Origin: Escherichia coli
GTDB taxonomy: Bacteria; Pseudomonadota; Gammaproteobacteria; Enterobacterales; Enterobacteriaceae
Reading direction: 5' to 3' (one strand)
Assembly (NCBI RefSeq): GCF_003334315.1
Contig: NZ_QOWR01000075.1
DNA length: 15,366 bases
In this document: one piece after another, positions 1-15,366 of the stretch
Layout: every line of letters begins with the position of its first letter
How positions within the stretch are numbered: position 1 is the stretch's first letter
The notes under the pieces: model-generated
The model's input: only the letters and a program-made list of their open reading frames with translations
Databases searched by the model: none
What the model was told of the DNA's origin: nothing
Translations under genes and position numbers: made by a program

Positions 1-105
1 ATTATATCGAATGTGATTACAATCGGTGGCGGCGGCACAGTTGGTGTGGCGGCCTCAGTCCGGAACAATTTGAAAACAAGAACCTCGCTTAGGCCTGTGT
101 CCATA

Positions 106-483
106 TTACGTGGGTAGGATCAGATCAGGAACAGCTTTAACAGTAGCTTCTTGTTGTGTCTTGGCTTCTTGTCTAGCTTCTTCTTGTGGAATATCTACCA
201 CTTGATAGACATTAGAACTTCCTGGTCGTGCATCTTTTATAATTAACCCCATTTCGAGCAATTTCTTAACCCTTTCCTCTGCTGCTCTTGGTGTTATGCC
301 AAAAACATCGCCTATCTTAGCGTAAGAGGGAAATGCACGATCAAACCCTTTCAGATAGCAGTAAAGATTTTTAGCACTATCTGTAAATTTATGCCCGTTT
401 ACTTGGCTTATTTTTAGAATCCACATAGGAACTTTTACAAATTGTTCTTCATTAATCATTAAAAATCTCCTTGATGTAATCAC
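106..483 (-). CDS. HTH_36-like winged-helix DNA-binding protein, 125 aa (putative replication-initiator-like or regulatory protein of the element)
   Basis: ORF MITSRRFLMINEEQFVKVPMWILK...; the central segment SAKNLYCYLKGFDRAFPSYAKIGDVFGITPRAAEERVKKLLEMGLI has the pattern I associate with the HTH_36 family found in phage/plasmid Rep-like proteins. Strong RBS: the minus strand reads AAGGAGA about 7 nt before the ATG. Last gene of a tightly packed three-gene operon. Confidence 0.55.
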   Translation of the reverse strand: MITSRRFLMINEEQFVKVPMWILKISQVNGHKFTDSAKNLYCYLKGFDRAFPSYAKIGDVFGITPRAAEERVKKLLEMGLIIKDARPGSSNVYQVVDIPQEEARQEAKTQQEATVKAVPDLILPT

Positions 484-512
484 GCTCTATGGCGCTACTA
501 TGGTGATAAAAA

Positions 513-683
513 TCACTTGCTTTTATTTGAGAGTGTTTCAGCCTCTCTTTTCAACATATCAAGAATGTAATCTGTGACAGTGATACGTCTACTTCTGGCT
601 TCTTTAAATAACACCTGAAATACTTCATCAGGAATATGAAAGCAAGTGCGTGGTTGTCTTTTCTTTTCTGTAGTTTCGCTCAT
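513..683 (-). CDS. Small ribbon-helix-helix-like (CopG/Arc-type) protein, 56 aa; absent from the supplied ORF track (below length cutoff)
   Basis: Hand translation of the minus strand: MSETTEKKRQPRTCFHIPDEVFQVLFKEARSRRITVTDYILDMLKREAETLSNKSK, stop TGA (complement at 513-515). The pattern basic N-terminus, beta-strand (TCFHIPDEV), helix (FQVLFKEARSRR), helix (ITVTDYILDMLK) is RHH-like. Strong RBS AAGGAG 6 nt upstream; 19-nt gap to the upstream gene and 29-nt gap to the downstream gene. Confidence 0.35.
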   Translation of the reverse strand: MSETTEKKRQPRTCFHIPDEVFQVLFKEARSRRITVTDYILDMLKREAETLSNKSK

Positions 684-702
684 AGTTTTCTCCTTCTATT
701 CT

Positions 703-891
703 TTACTCTGTTTCAGATTCTTTTTCATTTTTTCTTAATTCATCAATAATCTTGAGTGCTTCATTGAAGCAAGCTGCTCGCTCTGGATAACCTCGACTCC
801 TTGCCATATTACGATTCATTACTATTTGGTGGCGTGTAAGCTCACCTTTTTTAAATGCCGCGACAACGTGTTCCGATGTGAACCATTTCAT
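703..891 (-). CDS. Hypothetical small protein, 62 aa; first gene of the three-gene operon
   Basis: ORF MKWFTSEHVVAAFKKGELTRHQIVMNRNMARSRGYPERAACFNEALKIIDELRKNEKESETE with a strong RBS (minus strand TAAGGAGTTTTTT then ATG). I do not recognise a family. Confidence 0.4.
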   Translation of the reverse strand: MKWFTSEHVVAAFKKGELTRHQIVMNRNMARSRGYPERAACFNEALKIIDELRKNEKESETE

Positions 892-1122
892 AAAAAACTC
901 CTTATTCAGTTAAAAGAAAAACACCTTGCAAGCCTGACGGCTTCAAAGTGCATTGATTTTGATTATTTAGAGAAGAATGTTTTTCTGTCCCTCTAATACC
1001 TATTATTACATATAAAGAAACATTTGTCAATACCTTTTCACAAAAAATCTGATCTTTTTCATGTACTTACATTTTTTCTTAGCAATTCGTGCTCTTCTGT
1101 GTAGTGCTATTCTTCCTTATTG

Positions 1123-1145
1123 TCTAAAACGCTCTAAAACGCGTT
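1123..1145. repeat. Tandem 10-bp direct repeat tctaaaacgc x2 running into the palindrome AACGCGTT
   Basis: Seen directly: tctaaaacgc at 1123-1132 and 1133-1142, followed by a degenerate third unit (gttctaacga). Lies in the non-coding region upstream of the minus-strand operon. Confidence 0.4.
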
Positions 1146-1461
1146 CTAACGAGGTTTTGATAAAAGCAATACATTCCCTTATGTAATGGCTGTTTAGCTC
1201 GCCAGAGGCTTATTTAAGGGGCTTATTTTGTATTTGTTAGGTATATGAAAAGGTGATGGTAGATATAAGATAGAGAGTCACTTTATAAAACGCTCTGTAA
1301 AGCCCTGTAGTGAGTTTATATATGTAGGCAATGCGTTTCCATTCCCTACCCTGCTTAATGCTGTTAGAGAAGCATTTAGACCCCTTATTTTTAATTACCT
1401 AAAGTATCCTCTATACATTCCTGTTATGAAACACCTCTGAATCCTTCATAAAACACATTAT

Positions 1462-1517
1462 GACGCAAAGAACACTTTTCTAAGGTGATTCCCTTCCTGA
1501 ATGCTGTTTCTTGCGTC
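1462..1517. repeat. Imperfect inverted repeat, 13-nt arms (gacgcaaagaaca ... tgtttcttgcgtc), 30-nt spacer
   Basis: Seen directly; 11 of 13 positions are complementary. Possible operator or RNA hairpin. Confidence 0.4.
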
Positions 1518-1560
1518 AAAGAGCTACACAGAGCTTATAAAGCTATTATTAATAATAAAG

Positions 1561-1620
1561 TAGACAAAGTAAGTAAGATAAGTAAGTAAGATAACTAAGA
1601 TAGATAAGATTAATAAGATC
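1561..1620. repeat. Degenerate AT-rich short tandem repeat (aagtaag / ataagat units)
   Basis: Seen directly: aagtaagataagtaagtaagataactaagatagataagattaataagatc. Confidence 0.6.
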
Positions 1621-1630
1621 AGAATTCTCT

Positions 1631-1660
1631 TTCGGTGTCGCCTCTGGCTTTTCCACCGAA
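1631..1660. other. Hairpin-forming inverted repeat ttcggtg-N16-caccgaa
   Basis: Seen directly: 7-bp perfect arms with a T-rich loop (tcgcctctggcttttc), located just before the first 42-bp direct repeat. Confidence 0.35.
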
Positions 1661-1663
1661 AAC

Positions 1664-1828
1664 AATTACACAACTACAGAGAATAACGAGAGTTATTAAA
1701 TGTAGAAAGTGGAATTGTATTGAGGCTTAGTGAAATTACACGAGGAAAGCAGAGTGTAATTGAGCTTTAGCCGCTCTCTCTTCGAGTAATTACACAACTA
1801 CAGAGAATAACAGAGTTATTAAATGTAG
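1664..1828. repeat. Pair of 41/42-bp direct repeats (aattacacaactacagagaataac(g)agagttattaaatgtag) about 124 bp apart
   Basis: Seen directly: copy 1 at 1664-1705, copy 2 at 1788-1828, differing by a single g indel. Each contains the short palindrome aataac...gttatt and is followed by similar sequence (gaaagtggaatt / gagggtaatt). Confidence 0.7.
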
Positions 1829-1917
1829 GAGGGTAATTAAGAGTTAGAGAGAGTTAACACATAAGCAATCAGTATGATTGGTTAGGTGATTACTCTTCTG
1901 CGCACAGCGCAATAGTA

Positions 1918-1960
1918 TTTCTTCGTGGGCGTTACCGCCAACGATAGTTACACGAAGAAA
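1918..1960. other. Strong stem-loop: 10-bp perfect inverted repeat tttcttcgtg / cacgaagaaa enclosing a nested ggcg-ttac-cgcc hairpin, within a locally GC-richer segment (about 1860-2075); candidate structured RNA or protein-binding site
   Basis: Seen directly. The 75-codon minus-strand ORF over this segment has no obvious RBS or protein-like composition, so I favour a structural element over a CDS. Confidence 0.4.
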
Positions 1961-2128
1961 GTAACGCTTTGCTTTCGGTGTGAGCGGAACGGGCCAGCCA
2001 CGAAGCCCAAAGGTAGCGGAGTAAGGCTGCTTGCCAGAGAGTGAAGCTAACGCCGGAAGGCAAAAGATCATATAAATAAATATATAATATTATAATTTAA
2101 TAAGTAATTTAATAAATGATCTAATAGG

Positions 2129-2262
2129 TAACAGAATTCTGTGGGGGTGTCTAACAGTTTTCTGTGGGGGTGTCTAACAGAATTCTGTTAGGGTGGGGTA
2201 ACAGAATTTTGTTAGGGTAAAAATCTCTTTAAAAGTTAAGATTAACAGAATTCTGTGGGGGG
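2129..2262. repeat. Repeat family A: palindrome (t)AACAGAATTCTGT(T) followed by G-runs (gtggggg); direct repeat ctgtgggggtgtctaacag x2
   Basis: Seen directly: copies starting near 2129, 2176, 2199 (degenerate, aattttgtt) and 2243, with a fifth at 2538. ACAGAATTCTGT is a perfect 12-bp palindrome, a likely dimeric DNA-binding-protein site. Confidence 0.7.
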
Positions 2263-2325
2263 TAGCTCACAGTGACCTACCCCCTAGTTCACTATGACCT
2301 ACCCCCCTAGGTCACAGTGACCTAT
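2263..2325. repeat. Iteron cluster 1 (family B): three roughly 21-bp units tag(c/t)tcac(a/t)(g/a)tgacctacccc; the third is the perfect palindrome AGGTCACAGTGACCT
   Basis: Seen directly: 2263-2284, 2285-2307 and 2307-2325; the palindrome is at 2309-2323. Confidence 0.7.
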
Positions 2326-2349
2326 ATAGTATAAAGAATATTATTTATA

Positions 2350-2377
2350 TTATTTAATTATAGTATTTAATTATAGT
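2350..2377. repeat. AT-rich 13-bp tandem repeat (atttaattatagt x2) in a roughly 50-bp A+T tract; candidate DNA-unwinding element
   Basis: Seen directly, lying between iteron families B and C. Iterons next to an AT-rich tract is the classical origin layout. Confidence 0.45.
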
Positions 2378-2385
2378 ATTGGTGG

Positions 2386-2483
2386 AACTCATTTCCTAGG
2401 TAGGTAGGAACTAATTTCCTAAGTAGGTAGGAAACCACTTCCTAGGTTACTTCCTAAATAGATCGGAAATCATTTCCTAGGTG
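2386..2483. repeat. Repeat family C: (a/c)tttcctagg(taggtagga) units at roughly 22-bp spacing (4-5 copies); contains the palindrome CCTAGG
   Basis: Seen directly: tttcctagg at 2392, tttcctaag at 2414, cttcctagg at 2438, cttcctaaa at 2451, tttcctagg at 2473. Confidence 0.6.
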
Positions 2484-2498
2484 TTATTTATACTTATC

Positions 2499-2535
2499 GG
2501 GTATCAGTTTTGATAGGGGTATCAGACTTGATAGG
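2499..2535. repeat. Repeat family D: gggtatcag(tt/ac)ttgatag x2 in tandem, 19-bp period
   Basis: Seen directly at 2499-2516 and 2517/2518-2535. Confidence 0.6.
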
Positions 2536-2556
2536 GGTAACAGAATTCTGTGGGGG

Positions 2557-2618
2557 TAGTTCACTATGACCTACCCCTAGTTCACTGTGAGCTACCCCTA
2601 GTTCACTGTGAGCTACCG
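2557..2618. repeat. Iteron cluster 2 (family B): three head-to-tail 21-bp units tagttcac(t)(a/g)tga(c/g)ctacc(cc)
   Basis: Seen directly: 2557-2577, 2578-2598 and 2599-2618, with exact 21-bp periodicity (two helical turns), as expected for Rep-binding iterons. Confidence 0.75.
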
Positions 2619-2712
2619 TTACATCCAATCATCTGTCGATGTAACATATCGTTACTACCAACTTTCTTACAAAGAGCATTTCAGATAGCTGAATGTAACC
2701 TCTCGTTACATC
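2617..2712. repeat. Palindrome-rich block: gttacatc-N12-gatgtaac, gtaac-atatc-gttac, and cgttacatcc repeated (2617 and 2703)
   Basis: Seen directly. Confidence 0.5.
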
Positions 2713-2729
2713 CATTTGTCACATAGCAC

Positions 2730-3210
2730 TCTGTGTAATGCCTTTCTATGTGTGTGCCATAATCCCCCTATATTCCCTGTGTAAATCATAGAATAATGCT
2801 CTCTATTCCCTGTGTAATTCCCTACTAAAAATCAATGAAAAAGTAGCTTAAAGTTGCAATTCTTACTTTCTTCACTTTTACATCACTTTCGCAAAGCCTT
2901 GTGTAATGCGGCTTACAGAGCACCATCAGAAATTGTTGGCTAAAAATTATTCTGCTTGTTTCTGAACGAGTTTTCTCGTTTGTGCAAATTTTAAAATTTA
3001 TTTTGTTTTTACAGCCTTATTTCGTGTAATGCGTGGCATAGCAAGCCCTTTTCTTGTGTTGTCAAGACATTTGGCAACGTTCAAACATCTGTTTAGAAAT
3101 GCCAAATTGTTGATCTAACAAATAAACCTGTATAAACAGAACACCATTTAATCTATTCCCCTGTGTATCCATTAGGCATACCAAATGAATACAGCTAAAT
3201 CGTGTAATAT
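2730..3210. repeat. Dispersed motif (c)tgtgtaat(g) recurring about 7 times, including the direct repeat tattccctgtgtaa x2 (2770-2818)
   Basis: Seen directly near 2733, 2779, 2811, 2901, 3026, 3161 (variant tgtgtatcc) and 3203. The region is non-coding and leads up to the recombinase gene. Confidence 0.45.
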
Positions 3211-3262
3211 TCCGTACCCATAAGGCTTGAAACAGACCAAATGAATACGGTATACTCATTTG
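3169..3262. promoter_or_regulatory. Putative res/hix-like recombinase binding region: duplicated motif cat(t/a)aggc..accaaatgaatac(a/g)g plus the palindrome caaatga-N11-tcatttg
   Basis: Seen directly: copy 1 at 3169-3194, copy 2 at 3217-3250, palindrome at 3238-3262 with the palindromic core gtatac. The location immediately 5' of a resolvase-family gene is where res sites sit in Tn3-family and plasmid resolution systems. Confidence 0.4.
3227..3256 (+). promoter_or_regulatory. Putative sigma70 promoter of the recombinase gene (-35 TTGAAA, 18-bp spacer, -10 TATACT)
   Basis: -35 at 3227-3232, -10 at 3251-3256, about 45 nt upstream of the ATG at 3302. The -10 lies inside the palindrome, which would suggest autoregulation. 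Sequence-pattern inference only. Confidence 0.35.
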
Positions 3263-3301
3263 CATTTAAGTAGTGCCAAATCGACACATTAAGAGGATTT
3301 T

Positions 3302-3841
3302 ATGAGCAATATCGGTTATAAGCGTGTGAGCACTGTAGATCAGAACACTGATCGCCAGCTTGCAGGAGTAACTCTCGATAAAGTCTTTGAAGATAAGCTG
3401 TCTGGTAAAGACACTAACCGCCCAGGCTTACAAGCGTGTTTAGCCTATCTGAGAGAAGGCGACACCTTACACGTGCACTCTCTCGACCGTTTAGGACGTA
3501 ACACCTTAGACATCCTTGCTTTAGTTGAACAACTTAATAATCGAGGTGTAATTGTTCGATTTCACAAAGAAGGAATCATTGCAGACATTACAAGCGCGAT
3601 GGGAAAGATGATGCTTACGATGTTGTCGGCAGTTGCAACGTGTGAACGTGAACTGATGTTAGAACGTAAACGAGAAGCGCAAGCCGTCAATCCTACAAAA
3701 CGTGGTAATGGAAAAGCAGTGGATCGAGAAGGTATAAAGAAAGCCCTTTCTGATGGCCTGTCAGTGCGTAAAACCGCCGAGAGCTTTAATGTTGCTCCTT
3801 CAACGGTGCAACGTATCAAGAAGGAAGAAGAGGAGGCGTAA
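3302..3841 (+). CDS. Small serine recombinase (resolvase/invertase family), 179 aa
   Basis: N-terminal GYKRVSTVDQ is the catalytic-serine motif of serine recombinases. Conserved blocks FEDKLSG, RPGL, LDRLGR and SAVATCERELMLER resemble the Tn3 TnpR, Gin and Hin layout. A C-terminal HTH is present (LSVRKTAESFNVAPSTVQRIKK). RBS AAGAGGA lies 5 nt upstream. Not identical to the Pin or Gin sequences I recall. Confidence 0.85.
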   Translation: MSNIGYKRVSTVDQNTDRQLAGVTLDKVFEDKLSGKDTNRPGLQACLAYLREGDTLHVHSLDRLGRNTLDILALVEQLNNRGVIVRFHKEGIIADITSAMGKMMLTMLSAVATCERELMLERKREAQAVNPTKRGNGKAVDREGIKKALSDGLSVRKTAESFNVAPSTVQRIKKEEEEA

Positions 3842-3850
3842 TGCCTCCTT
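3829..3850 (+). terminator. Possible hairpin at the recombinase stop (ggaggcg-taa-tgcctcc)
   Basis: 6-bp GC stem spanning the stop codon, followed by ttgatattt. Weak T-tract, so low confidence. Confidence 0.25.
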
Positions 3851-4077
3851 GATATTTGAGAATTGTCGCTGCGTGGACCTGACGGCGCTGATCTTCTCGT
3901 TAAGCGATGATCACGTATGCGCCGATTTCAGAGAAAAAGACAGTAACTGAACTCACTATGAAGGCTAAACGTATCTTTACACTTGATGAAAACGTTCAAA
4001 AAACAACCTAACCCCAAAATTCAACAAATTGCAACACATTGTTTTTAAAAGAAAATTAAATCTACATCAAATATTGG

Positions 4078-4106
4078 TTGACGTAGATTGAGGTGAATAG
4101 TAGACT
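4078..4106 (+). promoter_or_regulatory. Putative promoter for the small hydrophobic ORF (-35 TTGACG, 17-bp spacer, -10 TAGACT)
   Basis: Pattern match only; would give a leader of about 70 nt before the ATG at 4183. Confidence 0.25.
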
Positions 4107-4182
4107 ATTAGGGTAAATTACCACCCTTGTAACATCATTTAATGCATGTTCTAATCTTCCTATCGTAAAACCGGAGGAAGTT

Positions 4183-4341
4183 ATGCATTTACTTTCAAAA
4201 CATCTTCACACTATTCACTTTCTCGTTATTGATGTATTCGTTGTGGCTATTAGTTACCGCATTTGCATCGCTTCCAGTGAAGAGATGGACGCTGTTGCAA
4301 TTATTGCTCAAGCAATGGCGATATTAACTAAACGACTTTAA
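4183..4341 (+). CDS. Small hydrophobic protein, 52 aa (candidate small membrane protein or toxin-like peptide); absent from the ORF track
   Basis: Hand translation: MHLLSKHLHTIHFLVIDVFVVAISYRICIASSEEMDAVAIIAQAMAILTKRL, stop TAA at 4339-4341. Strong RBS GGAGGAAG 5-6 nt upstream. A roughly 20-residue hydrophobic stretch is consistent with one transmembrane helix. Confidence 0.35.
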   Translation: MHLLSKHLHTIHFLVIDVFVVAISYRICIASSEEMDAVAIIAQAMAILTKRL

Positions 4342-4354
4342 TAATTTCACTATC

Positions 4355-4398
4355 AGGCGCATAAACACATCTTTGATCGCTGGATGTGTTATGCGCCT
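4355..4398. terminator. Long near-perfect inverted repeat (aggcgcataaacacatc - N11 - gatgtgttatgcgcct) between the two convergent small ORFs; candidate bidirectional terminator or operator
   Basis: Seen directly: arms at 4355-4371 and 4383-4398, 16 of 17 positions paired with one bulged A. The position between convergent ORFs fits a terminator, though flanking T-tracts are weak. Confidence 0.45.
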
Positions 4399-4407
4399 AC
4401 TGGTGAT

Positions 4408-4560
4408 TCAATCCTTAAGCCATTTCAACTCACTAAGGAGTTTTCTTTCTTCGTTCTCTCGTTGCTTTCGCTCTAGCCAGGCTTTTCCCTCTGGCGTAGA
4501 CAGGAACTTACGAGCGTGAATCTTGCGGTTATTACGTTTTATAGCTGCAATGTTTTTCAT
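4408..4560 (-). CDS. Small basic protein, 50 aa, hypothetical; absent from the ORF track
   Basis: Hand translation of the minus strand: MKNIAAIKRNNRKIHARKFLSTPEGKAWLERKQRENEERKLLSELKWLKD, stop TGA (complement at 4408-4410). A possible RBS (AGAGG) lies upstream. I do not recognise a family. Confidence 0.3.
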   Translation of the reverse strand: MKNIAAIKRNNRKIHARKFLSTPEGKAWLERKQRENEERKLLSELKWLKD

Positions 4561-5166
4561 CGTGTTGCCTCTGTATTCATATGAAAATTAACAAGTTACA
4601 TACTACACAGGGAGACTACGCATAAAACACAATACAAGTAAAGATACATTTTCAAGACAATAGGAGCCATAAAGCGCCTTTGATGGTTATACCAAAAAAT
4701 AAGCGCCGTAGGCGTATCCACTAAAAAGGGCTTTTTCACAAAAGCTATGAAGTCTTAGCAGTTCTTCTCTTATCAGGCACCCGTTGTACTCCGGTGGACG
4801 AAACCGTGCTAGAGCTTGATTCTTTCCCGATCAAGTTAGGTTTTGAAGAGGTGGGCTTTAATCCACTATTGCACTTAAAACTCTTCCCATCATTTAGCCT
4901 GTTTATCCTCTGCAACGTCTCACGACGTGTAGCATCATTGGACACCGCGCCAGGTGTGGAACATCTTGCTAAGAGTTTTGGTAGAAGGTTTAGAGACGGT
5001 GGCACGTCTTCCAGCTTCAAAGGAACTTGTTACGAGGTTGAGCCTGGGAACTACTCGCCCATACGTGTTACACTACCAAAGCCCATAACAACGTATAGGC
5101 GTTTGTAAGTGATAACAGAAGATACAATTTCTTAGAGAAGTTAAGCTAAGTTATTGATTTTCTTGA

Positions 5167-5242
5167 TGGTGCCGATAATAGGAGTCGAACCTACGACCTT
5201 CGCATTACGAATGCGCTGCTCTACCAACTGAGCTATATCGGC
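5167..5242 (-). tRNA. thrW: tRNA-Thr (anticodon CGU), thrW-like
   Basis: The minus strand reads GCCGATATAGCTCAGTTGGTAGAGCAGCGCATTCGTAATGCGAAGGTCGTAGGTTCGACTCCTATTATCGGCACCA: cloverleaf features, anticodon loop TTCGTAA, encoded CCA. It sits downstream of proA as in E. coli. Confidence 0.95.
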
Positions 5243-8012: not shown

Positions 8013-9068
8013 ATGAAAAAGAGCACTCTGGCATTAGTGGTGATGGGCATTGTGGCATCTGCATCCGTACAGGCCGCAGAAATATATAACAAAGACAGTA
8101 ATAAACTGGATGTCTATGGCAAAGTTAAAGCCATGCATTATATGAGTGATAACGACAGTAAAGATGGCGACCAGAGTTATATCCGTTTTGGTTTTAAAGG
8201 CGAAACACAAATTAACGATCAACTGACTGGTTATGGTCGTTGGGAAGCAGAGTTTGCCGGTAATAAAGCAGAGAGTGATACTGCACAGCAAAAAACGCGT
8301 CTCGCTTTTGCCGGGTTGAAATATAAAGATTTGGGTTCTTTCGATTATGGTCGTAACCTGGGCGCGTTGTATGACGTGGAAGCCTGGACCGATATGTTCC
8401 CGGAATTTGGTGGCGACTCCTCGGCGCAGACCGACAACTTTATGACCAAACGCGCCAGCGGTCTGGCGACGTATCGGAACACCGACTTCTTCGGCGTTAT
8501 CGATGGCCTGAACTTAACCCTGCAATATCAAGGGAAAAACGAAAACCGCGACGTTAAAAAGCAAAACGGCGATGGCTTCGGTACGTCATTGACATATGAC
8601 TTTGGCGGCAGCGATTTCGCCATTAGTGGGGCCTATACCAACTCAGATCGCACCAACGAGCAGAACCTGCAAAGCCGTGGCACAGGCAAGCGTGCAGAAG
8701 CATGGGCAACAGGTCTGAAATACGATGCCAATAATATTTATCTGGCAACTTTCTATTCTGAAACACGCAAAATGACGCCAATAACTGGCGGCTTTGCCAA
8801 TAAGACACAGAACTTTGAAGCGGTCGCTCAATACCAGTTTGACTTTGGTCTGCGTCCATCGCTGGGTTATGTCTTATCGAAAGGGAAAGATATTGAAGGT
8901 ATCGGTGATGAAGATCTGGTCAATTATATCGACGTCGGTGCTACGTATTATTTCAACAAAAATATGTCAGCGTTTGTTGATTATAAAATCAACCAACTGG
9001 ATAGCGATAACAAATTGAATATTAATAATGATGATATTGTCGCGGTTGGCATGACCTATCAGTTTTAA
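8013..9068 (+). CDS. phoE: Phosphate-starvation-inducible outer membrane porin PhoE, 351 aa
   Basis: Signal peptide [21 protein letters not shown] followed by AEIYNKD...; C-terminal ...VAVGMTYQF with terminal Phe, typical of porins. I chose the ATG at 8013 rather than 8007, based on the SD AGGA at 8003-8006 and the recalled PhoE N-terminus. Confidence 0.95.
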
Positions 9069-11620: not shown

Positions 11621-13078
11621 GTGTCTGAACTGTCTCAATTATCTCCACAGCCGCTGTGGGATATTTTTGCCAAAATCTGTTCTATTCCTCACCCGTCCTA
11701 TCATGAAGAGCAACTCGCTGAATACATTGTTGGTTGGGCAAAAGAGAAAGGTTTCCATGTCGAACGCGATCAGGTAGGTAATATCCTGATTCGTAAACCT
11801 GCCACCGCAGGTATGGAAAATCGTAAACCGGTCGTCTTGCAGGCCCACCTCGATATGGTGCCGCAGAAAAATAACGACACCGTGCATGACTTCACGAAAG
11901 ATCCTATCCAGCCTTATATTGATGGCGAATGGGTTAAAGCGCGCGGCACCACGCTGGGTGCAGATAACGGCATTGGTATGGCGTCTGCGCTGGCGGTTCT
12001 GGCTGACGAAAACGTGGTTCACGGCCCGCTGGAAGTGCTGCTGACCATGACCGAAGAAGCCGGTATGGACGGTGCGTTCGGCTTACAGAGCAACTGGTTG
12101 CAGGCTGATATTCTGATTAACACCGACTCCGAAGAAGAAGGTGAAATCTACATGGGTTGCGCGGGGGGTATCGACTTCACCTCCAACCTGCATTTGGATC
12201 GTGAAGCGGTTCCAGCTGGCTTTGAAACCTTCAAGTTAACCTTAAAAGGTCTAAAAGGCGGTCACTCCGGCGGTGAAATCCACGTTGGCCTGGGTAATGC
12301 CAACAAACTGCTGGTGCGCTTCCTGGCGGGTCATGCGGAAGAGCTGGACCTGCGCCTTATCGATTTCAACGGTGGCACACTGCGTAACGCCATCCCGCGT
12401 GAAGCCTTTGCGACCATTGCTGTCGCAGCTGATAAAGTCGACGCCCTGAAATCTCTGGTGAATACCTATCAGGACATCCTGAAAAACGAGCTGGCAGAGA
12501 AAGAGAAGAATCTGGCCTTGTTGCTGGACTCTGTAGCGAACGATAAAGCTGCTCTGATTGCGAAATCTCGCGATACCTTTATTCGTCTGCTGAACGCCAC
12601 CCCGAACGGTGTGATCCGCAATTCCGACGTGGCAAAAGGTGTGGTCGAAACCTCCCTGAACGTCGGTGTGGTGACCATGACTGACAATAACGTAGAAATT
12701 CACTGCCTGATCCGTTCACTGATCGACAGCGGTAAAGACTACGTGGTGAGCATGCTGGATTCGCTGGGTAAACTGGCTGGCGCGAAAACCGAAGCGAAAG
12801 GCGCATATCCTGGCTGGCAGCCGGACGCTAATTCTCCGGTGATGCATCTGGTACGTGAAACCTATCAGCGCCTGTTCAACAAGACGCCGAACATCCAGAT
12901 TATCCACGCGGGCCTGGAATGTGGTCTGTTTAAAAAACCGTATCCGGAAATGGACATGGTTTCTATCGGGCCAACTATCACCGGTCCACACTCTCCGGAT
13001 GAGCAAGTTCACATCAAAAGCGTAGGTCATTACTGGACACTGCTGACTGAACTGCTGAAAGAAATTCCGGCGAAGTAA
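11621..13078 (+). CDS. pepD: Cytosol non-specific dipeptidase (aminoacyl-histidine dipeptidase) PepD, 485 aa, GTG start
   Basis: ORF MSELSQLSPQPLWDIFAKICSIPHPSYHEE... recognised as PepD (M20 family). Start codon GTG at 11621, preceded by AAGGAGA. Divergent from gpt across a roughly 260-bp intergenic region. Confidence 0.95.
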   Translation: MSELSQLSPQPLWDIFAKICSIPHPSYHEEQLAEYIVGWAKEKGFHVERDQVGNILIRKPATAGMENRKPVVLQAHLDMVPQKNNDTVHDFTKDPIQPYIDGEWVKARGTTLGADNGIGMASALAVLADENVVHGPLEVLLTMTEEAGMDGAFGLQSNWLQADILINTDSEEEGEIYMGCAGGIDFTSNLHLDREAVPAGFETFKLTLKGLKGGHSGGEIHVGLGNANKLLVRFLAGHAEELDLRLIDFNGGTLRNAIPREAFATIAVAADKVDALKSLVNTYQDILKNELAEKEKNLALLLDSVANDKAALIAKSRDTFIRLLNATPNGVIRNSDVAKGVVETSLNVGVVTMTDNNVEIHCLIRSLIDSGKDYVVSMLDSLGKLAGAKTEAKGAYPGWQPDANSPVMHLVRETYQRLFNKTPNIQIIHAGLECGLFKKPYPEMDMVSIGPTITGPHSPDEQVHIKSVGHYWTLLTELLKEIPAK

Positions 13079-13134: not shown

Positions 13135-13692
13135 TTATCCTTCGATAAAAGCCATCCCTGTAAATGTCCGTCGCGGGTTGCCACGTTCAATCTGGTGATG
13201 GAACATTCGCCGCTGCGATTTCAGCGCCGCGCTATTTTCCTGTTGCTGCTGCTCCAGCTTCCAGGCAATCAGCAATCGCGCCAGCCGTTTGTTAGCATGC
13301 TGGCTGCGCTCTGACTGAACCTTCACGCTAATACCGGATGCCAGATGCGTGGCGCGTACCGCCGAGTCGGTTTTATTGACATGTTGACCGCCCGGCCCCG
13401 ACGAACGCAGCGTCTCATAACGGATTGCATCCGATTGTTCCTTCTCATCAGCGGTAAAACGCCCAATGCCCAGAAACCAGTTTTTGCGCCCATGATGAGG
13501 CCGATACGGACTCGGACAAATCCACTGAATAGTGCCACACCAGCTTTCGCTTAATGCCCATGCGTTATCGCCATCCAGAGAAACCAGCGCCGAACGCAGC
13601 GTGTCAGAGTAGCGGCCCGTTTCTGTTTCCAGCACCGTTACAGCGACGTCTTGTCGGGTAAAAACGACCAACAGAGAAGAACGCTGCGCCAA
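13135..13692 (-). pseudogene. prfH: Peptide chain release factor homolog PrfH, 5'-truncated or fused remnant
   Basis: The ORF contains the release-factor GGQ motif ([20 protein letters not shown]). Its 5' end overlaps, in another frame, the end of an RtcB-like fragment, consistent with the deletion-fused rtcB'-prfH' remnant known from E. coli K-12. Whether the product is functional cannot be told from sequence alone. Confidence 0.7.
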
Positions 13693-13870
13693 TCGGGTAG
13701 CCGCGTCCGGGGTGTAAATCTGGCATCCCCACTACGCGCTGCATGTTGGGTAAATTTGCCGTGGTGTGTAATTGTTGGATCGCTAAACTCTCGATCCACA
13801 GGTCATCAGATGCGATGGTAAATACCGCATCGGATAAGGGACGAATATATTTGCCCATGTACCATTCCAT
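13604..13870 (-). pseudogene. ykfJ: RtcB-like RNA ligase N-terminal fragment (ykfJ-like remnant)
   Basis: The 88-codon [67 protein letters not shown]... resembles the RtcB N-terminal region (MPD.H.G.G..IG), then runs into out-of-frame prfH sequence at about 13655-13660. Far shorter than an intact RtcB. Confidence 0.6.
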
Positions 13871-14050: not shown

Positions 14051-14090
14051 AATAAGAAAACGCGCACATACCAGGCGGGCGTTATTTTCA
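14051..14090 (-). terminator. Weak candidate terminator downstream of yafP
   Basis: Short hairpin aacgc-N15-gcgtt (14059-14083), followed on the minus strand by TTTTCTTATT. Low confidence. Confidence 0.25.
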
Positions 14091-14103: not shown

Positions 14104-14556
14104 TTAATATTGCGGTTTATATCGCATATAAAAATTAGTAAACCACGTTCCCCGGCATTCAACGCGCTGCTGCTTAACTGTCTGAAAACCATAACGTTCA
14201 AAAAAGGGTTTTGCGGTTATGCTGGCGTCCACCGTAAGTTCGGATTCAGACTTAATCAAAGGTTTTAACAAAGCGCAGGCAACCCCGCGGCGGGTGTATT
14301 CAGGGTCAACAAATAACATATCGATATAACGTTCAACGCAGGTAATAAAACCAACCGGTTGTGCATTAATGACGGCAACCCGCACTTGTGATTTCGCGAG
14401 TTTCTCCTTCCAGCGAGATTCGTCAATCTGCGCCCAGGCGGCAATTTGTTGTGGTGAATAATGCTGACTGGAGATCATCGTAACCGCTCTAATGAAAATA
14501 GCGCATAGTTGCTGAAAATCGCCAGGCTGATAGTCTCTTATTTGTATGTTATTCAT
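14104..14556 (-). CDS. yafP: GNAT-family N-acetyltransferase, 150 aa (YafP-like)
   Basis: ORF MNNIQIRDYQPGDFQQLCAIFIRAV... with an acetyl-CoA-binding-like segment (RRGVACALLKPL); 10 nt downstream of yafO, as in the dinB-yafN-yafO-yafP operon. Confidence 0.8.
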   Translation of the reverse strand: MNNIQIRDYQPGDFQQLCAIFIRAVTMISSQHYSPQQIAAWAQIDESRWKEKLAKSQVRVAVINAQPVGFITCVERYIDMLFVDPEYTRRGVACALLKPLIKSESELTVDASITAKPFFERYGFQTVKQQRVECRGTWFTNFYMRYKPQY

Positions 14557-14565
14557 AATATAAAT

Positions 14566-14913
14566 TCAAAAACGCATGCGAAACGCTTCTGCCATTTTCC
14601 CAATTTTATGCATTTGGTTGTTATCTCGAGCCTGTTTATGAGGTTCAGGTTTCAGAATGGCAATGAGCAACCATGCTTGCTCATCAAACGCACCCTGACA
14701 ATATACCAAATGCGCTTCGTCATTCGTTCTGCTGAATTGGCGCAACTGTGGCGGAAATGGATTATTCACATTTGCCAGATGAATATGAGCAACTCGCTCA
14801 AATTTGATTAATGGCCAGGTAAACGAGTCGTCGTAGAGTGCATCGCGACCAAATATATCTGGCAAAACACCGTCACGCTTATAGGAAATAAAATCCGCCG
14901 TTAACGCATCAAG
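14566..14913 (-). pseudogene. yafO: YafO-family toxin gene (type II toxin of YafN-YafO) interrupted by IS1; about 16 N-terminal codons lie beyond the insertion
   Basis: The reading frame continues upstream of the track ORF (...LDALTADFISYKRDGVLPDIFGRDALYDD...) right up to coordinate 14913, where the IS1 terminal repeat begins at 14914. There is no in-frame ATG in the retained part; the track ORF starts at TTG. Confidence 0.8.
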
Positions 14914-15366
14914 GGTAATGACTCCAACTTATTGATAGTGTTTTATGTTCAGATAATGCCCGATGACTTTGTCATGCAGCTCCACCGATTTTGAGAACGA
15001 CAGCGACTTCCGTCCCAGCCGTGCCAGGTGCTGCCTCAGATTCAGGTTATGCCGCTCAATTCGCTGCGTATATCGCTTGCTGATTACGTGCAGCTTTCCC
15101 TTCAGGCGGGATTCATACAGCGGCCAGCCATCCGTCATCCATATCACCACGTCAAAGGGTGACAGCAGGCTCATAAGACGCCCCAGCGTCGCCATAGTGC
15201 GTTCACCGAATACGTGCGCAACAACCGTCTTCCGGAGACTGTCATACGCGTAAAACAGCCAGCGCTGGCGCGATTTAGCCCCGACATAGCCCCACTGTTC
15301 GTCCATTTCCGCGCAGACGATGACGTCACTGCCCGGCTGTATGCGCGAGGTTACCGACTGCGGCCT
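14914..15366 (-). mobile_element. IS1 insertion sequence, partial (runs off the window end); terminal inverted repeat GGTAATGACTCCAACTTATTGAT at 14914-14936
   Basis: Sequence from 14914 recognised as the IS1 end adjoining the insB C-terminus; the encoded protein ends ...[13 protein letters not shown]. Confidence 0.95.
14929..15366 (-). CDS. insB: IS1 transposase InsB reading frame (C-terminal part; 5' end outside the window)
   Basis: Open frame to the window edge: ...[64 protein letters not shown]...HYQ, recognised as IS1 InsB. In IS1 the transposase is made as an InsAB' frameshift fusion. Confidence 0.9.

Follow-up and report, generated by a model that had tools for sequence, protein, structure and literature searches.

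The question raised by this locus is how an IS1 element came to stand inside the toxin gene yafO of the dinB-yafN-yafO-yafP operon, and what the event has left of the toxin and of yafP, the last gene of the operon. The yafN-yafO pair is dispensable, and only about one E. coli strain in two carries it (ECOR collection; Gutierrez et al. 2011, PMC3105422), and the yafN/yafO boundary is carried by 2,847 of the 5,426 complete E. coli genomes. The window, by which we mean the whole 15,366-nt stretch of DNA that was analysed, is an E. coli chromosomal segment, which begins with a thrW-linked island (1-5160), continues through the genes from thrW to a truncated yafO (hereafter yafO') and ends inside IS1.

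The IS1-yafO junction

The gene for thrW (5167-5242) is the only Rfam match in the window, and the Rfam scan of the window found nothing beyond it. It is followed by proA, proB, phoE, crl, frsA and gpt, in this order, and by pepD (11621-13078). Between pepD and yafP lie the truncated remnants of a prfH'/rtcB' pseudogene pair (13135-13870). The open reading frame list gives yafP (14104-14556, minus strand) as an intact GNAT N-acetyltransferase gene of 150 codons and a stop, and yafO' (14566-14913, minus strand) retains codons 18-132 and the TGA stop. This gene order is presumably the reverse of the K-12 map, and the remnants at 13135-13870 are what we take to be ykfJ/prfH of K-12. A full-length pair of rtcB (379 aa) and prfH (204 aa) occupies the same position in AF14, in MS 198-1 and at two further loci, L045 and L050.

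The first 5160 positions are part of an island integrated at thrW, which looks like a phage satellite. Complete relatives of the island encode integrase, Dit-like, major-capsid-like and HTH proteins together with a 179-aa resolvase, and the last of these is found in the window at 3302-3841. A region of about 2.4 kb without long open reading frames (900-3300) holds dense clusters of iterons, especially at 2129-2620. These include a 23-nt unit, TAACAGAATTCTGTGGGGGTGTC, in six close copies, a unit of about 21 nt, CCCCTAGTTCACTGTGAGCTACCCC, also in six copies, and three repeats of 32 nt with the core TTCCTAGGTAGGTAGGAA; taken together, the iteron clusters look like a replication origin.

An uninterrupted form of the locus is present in E. 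coli AH65 (NZ_CP058302.1; loci L022 and L061), and aligns with the window from position 5166 to exactly 14913. From thrW to yafO' the two sequences are 99.98% identical, with two mismatches in 9,748 bp. One is at 8915, in phoE, and the other at 14074, in an intergenic region; neither yafO' nor yafP contains any. PhoE of the window has D where the AH65 protein has E; an exact-protein look-up found the YafP, PepD, D-variant PhoE and island resolvase proteins to be all widespread in exactly the form encoded here. At 14914 the sequences part, AH65 going on with TTCCTCTGC (yafO codons 17 and lower) and the window with GGTAATGACTCC. An earlier note on this DNA had the YafO frame running to 14913 and cut exactly at an IS1 repeat beginning at 14914, and had proposed comparison with an uninterrupted locus as a check; the AH65 alignment bears it out to the base.

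The terminal inverted repeats of IS1 are imperfect, about 23 bp long, and read GGTRATG...CCAACTTAYTGAT. The repeat consensus has a single match in the window, at 14914-14936 on the plus strand (GGTAATGACTCCAACTTATTGAT), exact over 23 bp and without a mismatch, where none was expected by chance and none was seen in 200 shuffles. This is the right terminal inverted repeat (IRR), the left one lying beyond the window; the same scan found neither a second repeat nor an IS1 scar elsewhere in the window. From the repeat to the end of the window (14914-15366, minus strand) the sequence corresponds to IS1 positions 768 down to 316, i.e., to the right-hand 453 of 768 bp, the element being cut by the window end. 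In this part 452 of 453 bases are identical to the IS1A-type copies at loci L001, L002 and L019, and it has thousands of matches of at least 99% identity across E. coli genomes. It contains the C-terminal 145 codons of insB and their TAA stop (14929-15366, minus strand; stop at 14929-14931) in a frame without internal stops. The encoded 145 amino acids score 138 bits against the IS1 transposase profile NF033558 (cut-off 100; profile positions 82-199 of 199), which places the visible C-terminal part in the InsB/InsAB' DDE transposases. Transcription of insB and insAB' points toward yafO' and yafP and has the same direction as both. The exact right repeat, the near-identity of the bases and the InsB C terminus are common to the window and the IS1A-type IS1 of E. 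coli and Shigella, whereas the rest of the element, with the left repeat, insA and the frameshift site, would fall beyond the window, as would the target duplication. On these grounds the element can be recognized as a canonical, IS1A-like IS1, whose right repeat abuts codon 18 of yafO.

The remnant of yafO

The minus-strand translation of 14566-15000 passes through the C terminus of InsB (...HYQ*) and then, in the same frame, through VGVIT, directly followed by LDALTADFISYKRDGVLPDIFGRD...AFRMRF*. The part after VGVIT corresponds to YafO, from its residue 18 as far as the natural stop. The intact AH65 protein reads MRVFKTKLIRLQLTAEE before LDALTADF..., and therefore exactly 17 codons, with the ATG, are absent from yafO'; codons 18-132 agree at every base with the intact allele of AH65. 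Against the NCBIfam equivalog NF007377 the remnant, 115 aa long, scores 216 bits (cut-off 153; profile positions 19-132 of 132), and it matches Pfam PF13957 (YafO_toxin) over positions 2-101 of 101 with E = 2.7e-39, so that the whole domain is contained in it. By both profiles the remnant belongs to the YafO family. What the window lacks is a complete 132-aa yafO reading frame with a start of its own, its first 17 codons with the ATG having been replaced by IS1; yafO is here a pseudogene.

The frames of insB and yafO' coincide, with the TAA stop and five codons between them and no start codon there; that they share a frame is apparently coincidental. Downstream of the in-frame InsB stop, the translation meets no ATG, GTG or TTG before the TTG at 14865, which is the first possible in-frame start in yafO' and opens a frame of 99 aa, the longest one left. 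The strain would thus be null for the YafO toxin. Since yafO' and yafP carry no further mutations relative to the intact close relative, the IS1 event appears to be a recent one.

Loss of the toxin has also come about by other routes. There are frameshifts at loci L005 and L006 and an internal stop in MS 198-1. In MEI003 (L060, NZ_CP071263.1) yafO alone is cleanly deleted, which leaves dinB-yafN-yafP, an antitoxin without its toxin. The two-gene dinB-yafP operon (PMC3105422) resembles the window in that the YafO toxin is missing and yafP is retained. In that operon and in the other yafO-null alleles, however, yafP is joined to the dinB promoter, whereas in the window IS1 stands between the two.

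Simple insertion or adjacent deletion

The window shows one end of the element, and what lies at the other end has to be judged from related events. Eleven other IS1 copies were found in the yafO-yafP-rtcB' region of other genomes; eight of them are simple insertions with perfect duplications of 8-9 bp, and three have adjacent deletions. Two of the simple insertions are in yafO, namely L004, 27 bp downstream of the window's site and oriented alike, where intact dinB and yafN precede it (duplication AAGCGTGAC), and L012, at the 3' end of the gene (duplication CAAAAACG). Another, L002, is in yafP (duplication GACCCTGAA), and the remaining five (L001, L019, L056, L057 and L059) lie downstream of yafP, each with a 9-bp duplication. 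The L004 assembly (GCA_054662595.1, BAAFPK010000020.1) and the window are alike in the location of IS1, within the 5' part of yafO, in its orientation and in the 99-aa remnant with a TTG start that it leaves; in L004, dinB and yafN are found upstream and yafP downstream of IS1::yafO. It represents an independent event, in which both IS1 ends are visible and the duplication proves a simple insertion, whereas the window shows a single end.

The three copies with adjacent deletions lack a duplication. T28R (L003) and AF14 (L058) have the right end of IS1 at the L056 site, and deletions on its left side that reach into yafP. In ATCC 8739 (L042, NC_010468.1) yafN and 135 bp of yafO are kept, the 3' part of yafO and yafP are lost, and IS1 connects yafO codon ~45 to the rtcB'/prfH region. 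This strain resembles the window in having a same-orientation IS1 with one end in yafO, and its yafO is annotated as a pseudogene; its IS1, however, is a more divergent variant (95% identical), and it retains the 5' part of yafO where the window retains the opposite part. The site shared by SW070919 (L056), T28R and AF14, with the flank CAGCTTGCA in the yafP-rtcB' spacer, is identical in all three. SW070919 has there a simple insertion with its 9-bp duplication, and T28R and AF14 have different deletions on the left-end side. This suggests either that the three go back to a single insertion with later, separate deletions beside it, or that IS1 prefers this target site.

Short contigs add two IS1 ends in the 5' part of yafO: L008/L009 has one at codon 4, in the opposite orientation, and L011 has one that lies 15 bp upstream of where IS1 stands in the window. 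Altogether, at least five further independent IS1 ends lie in yafO in other assemblies: L008/L009 at codon 4, L011 at nt ~36, L004 at nt ~80, L012 at the 3' end and L042 at codon ~45, the last with a deletion. A hot spot for IS1 at the 5' end of yafO is not indicated: of the 2,847 complete genomes that carry the 272-bp stretch covering the yafN 3' and yafO 5' ends, 2,836 have it uninterrupted and 11 interrupted. Recurrent IS1 hits are thus rare, and call for no special explanation.

We searched for the window's own junction in several collections. A 901-bp query spanning it did not retrieve the yafO/IS1 junction from the 5,426 complete E. coli genomes; all 22 full-coverage matches are two-piece, with IS1 in or downstream of yafP. 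The exact junction-spanning 36-mer was not found in GTDB representative genomes, JGI metagenome contigs or IMG/VR, and no plasmid in PLSDB covers the junction. An exact-protein look-up in the gene index with the 99-aa remnant frame did not find it either, and returned other independent lesions of yafO. The upstream junction predicted for a simple insertion, with a duplication of 8-10 bp allowed, was not found in the JGI metagenomes; the yafO 5'-IS1 fusion frame predicted there has only 28 aa. BLAST matches to unrelated loci, which overran the IS1 end by 25-29 bp, were discarded as chance similarity of A+T-rich flanks, and a literature search on yafO with IS1 returned nothing relevant. With the exact junction absent from the collections searched, the window holds a new allele, but the same kind of thing.

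Because neither the junction nor its predicted upstream counterpart was found in the collections searched for them, it is the base rate at the locus, eight simple insertions to three deletions, that carries the choice between the readings. From this ratio we estimate that a simple insertion of IS1 into CTTGATGCG is probable, that a deletion or rearrangement is rather unlikely, and that a truncated or misassembled element is very improbable indeed. In a simple insertion, IS1 would have transposed into the target CTTGATGCG, and the 9 bp adjoining its end (14905-14913, minus strand, read from the sequence in yafO sense) would be one copy of the target duplication. Their first base is C and their last is G, which fits the target preference of IS1 that Zerbib et al. 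are said to have described in 1985. About 315 bp past the window the left end of IS1 would be reached, and after it the second copy of CTTGATGCG, the yafO 5' end, yafN and dinB. The sequence past the left end would be ...GCAGAGGAACTTGATGCG, with yafN upstream of that, and the flank of the left repeat (GGTGATGCTGCCAACTT...) would accordingly read ...ACAGCAGAGGAACTTGATGCG. The outcome would be a toxin-null allele with the antitoxin retained, harmless to the cell if yafN has been kept.

About a quarter of the IS1 copies at the locus have adjacent deletions, and for this reason a single visible end does not suffice to call an IS1 a simple insertion; three such copies out of 11 make deletion a real alternative. 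The earlier note had stated that the N-terminal codons of yafO and the antitoxin gene must lie past the IS1, which, with both outcomes on record at the locus, is too firm. It could take the form of an IS1-mediated adjacent deletion or inversion, or of recombination between two IS1 copies, and the sequence past the left end would then not be yafO 5'-yafN. In the former case IS1 would have inserted at this site or further upstream, and intramolecular transposition would afterwards have removed or inverted the DNA by one end; in either case yafN would be absent or displaced, possibly along with dinB and the lateral-flagellar remnant genes. Loss of the antitoxin would be tolerable through the truncation of the toxin. 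ATCC 8739 offers a deletion at the very same locus, and the T28R-type strains and AF14, with their right end at CAGCTTGCA as in SW070919 and their left side deleted into yafP, offer others. Copies of IS1 without duplications are also present among the loci compared, in the flg genes of L004 and in L040 and L044; some close relatives (T28R-type) have at least 39 IS1 places per genome; and IS1 typically produces deletions after which no direct repeats flank the element (PMC9330008). Against this, simple insertions are in the majority at the locus, and nothing within the window, neither a second IS1 repeat nor a scar, gives any sign of a deletion. A more specific version, in which IS1 marks a deletion that has taken yafN and perhaps dinB, the truncation having permitted the loss of the antitoxin, is more doubtful still. 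It would make yafP an orphan without DNA polymerase IV, a condition that one study associated with reduced fitness in a mouse septicaemia model (PMC3105422).

The remaining suggestion is that the IS1 stretch is a truncated remnant, or an artefact of a contig extended into a collapsed multi-copy repeat. The odd length of the window and its end in mid-IS1 would fit a contig broken within a repeat. But yafO gives way to IS1 precisely where a perfect terminal repeat begins, which is a signature of transposase action rather than of misassembly; the 453 bp have a single mismatch and an open insB frame; and the junction and the disruption of yafO stand even if the contig was cut short.

Expression of yafP and the state of the operon

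The yafP gene itself is intact. Its product scores 322 bits against the equivalog NF007338 (cut-off 146) over profile positions 1-150 of 150, and is thus full-length; the DNA of the gene shows no mismatches to AH65. What may have changed is its expression. An IS1 within an operon is classically expected to be polar on the genes downstream. Normally yafP is transcribed from the LexA-controlled dinB promoter (PMC3105422), and a polar IS1 would cut it off from that promoter. Any translational coupling of yafP to yafO would be lost too, since the gap between the yafO stop and the yafP ATG is only 9 nt long and no Shine-Dalgarno sequence can be made out.

A terminator-like hairpin with a T-run (CAGAAGCGTTTCGCATGCGTTTTTG AATTTATATT; 14567-14591, minus strand) is found in the last yafO codons, upstream of the yafP start. 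The same hairpin is present in AH65, where the yafO 3' end is base-for-base as in the window. The scan of the region gave four terminator-like sites where 1.7 were expected, so that the hairpin may be due to chance.

The earlier note had held that IS1 would separate yafO' and yafP from their promoter, and that an outward or hybrid promoter could drive yafP instead. The separation stands, inasmuch as the start codon and the link to the upstream transcription and translation signals have been removed; the activation has no support in the sequence. IS1 can form a hybrid promoter by means of an outward -35 box in its repeats, but only in combination with a -10 box at the right distance (PMC8764528). 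A consensus scan found no promoter-like site at the IS1/yafO junction. The outward -35-like hexamer of the right repeat, TTGGAG, matches TTGACA at 3 of 6 positions, and the hexamers that follow at 16, 17 and 18 bp (GTTAAC, TTAACG and TAACGG, located by eye) are all poor -10 boxes. The repeat and its flank therefore do not provide the -35 box and well-placed -10 box of an IS1 fusion promoter, and the candidate was rejected. The sole promoter-like match on the yafP strand, at 14582-14555, overlaps the yafP start codon and is present in intact loci too. With no hybrid promoter to be seen where IS1 meets yafO, silencing of yafP or weak read-through into it is more likely than its activation. In line with the general polarity of IS1, the gene is probably expressed weakly, if at all, and by read-through rather than from a new promoter.

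Taken as a whole, the earlier interpretation finds partial support. A recent and ordinary IS1 event has disrupted a toxin gene that E. coli can do without, which is an instance of routine gene decay; IS1, YafO and YafP are all well characterized, and the window adds an allele and nothing new in kind. For annotation it follows that yafO should be recorded as a pseudogene in this strain, and that the SOS-inducibility of yafP should not be assumed. The locus is one more case of the decay of a chromosomal toxin gene beside neighbours that persist.
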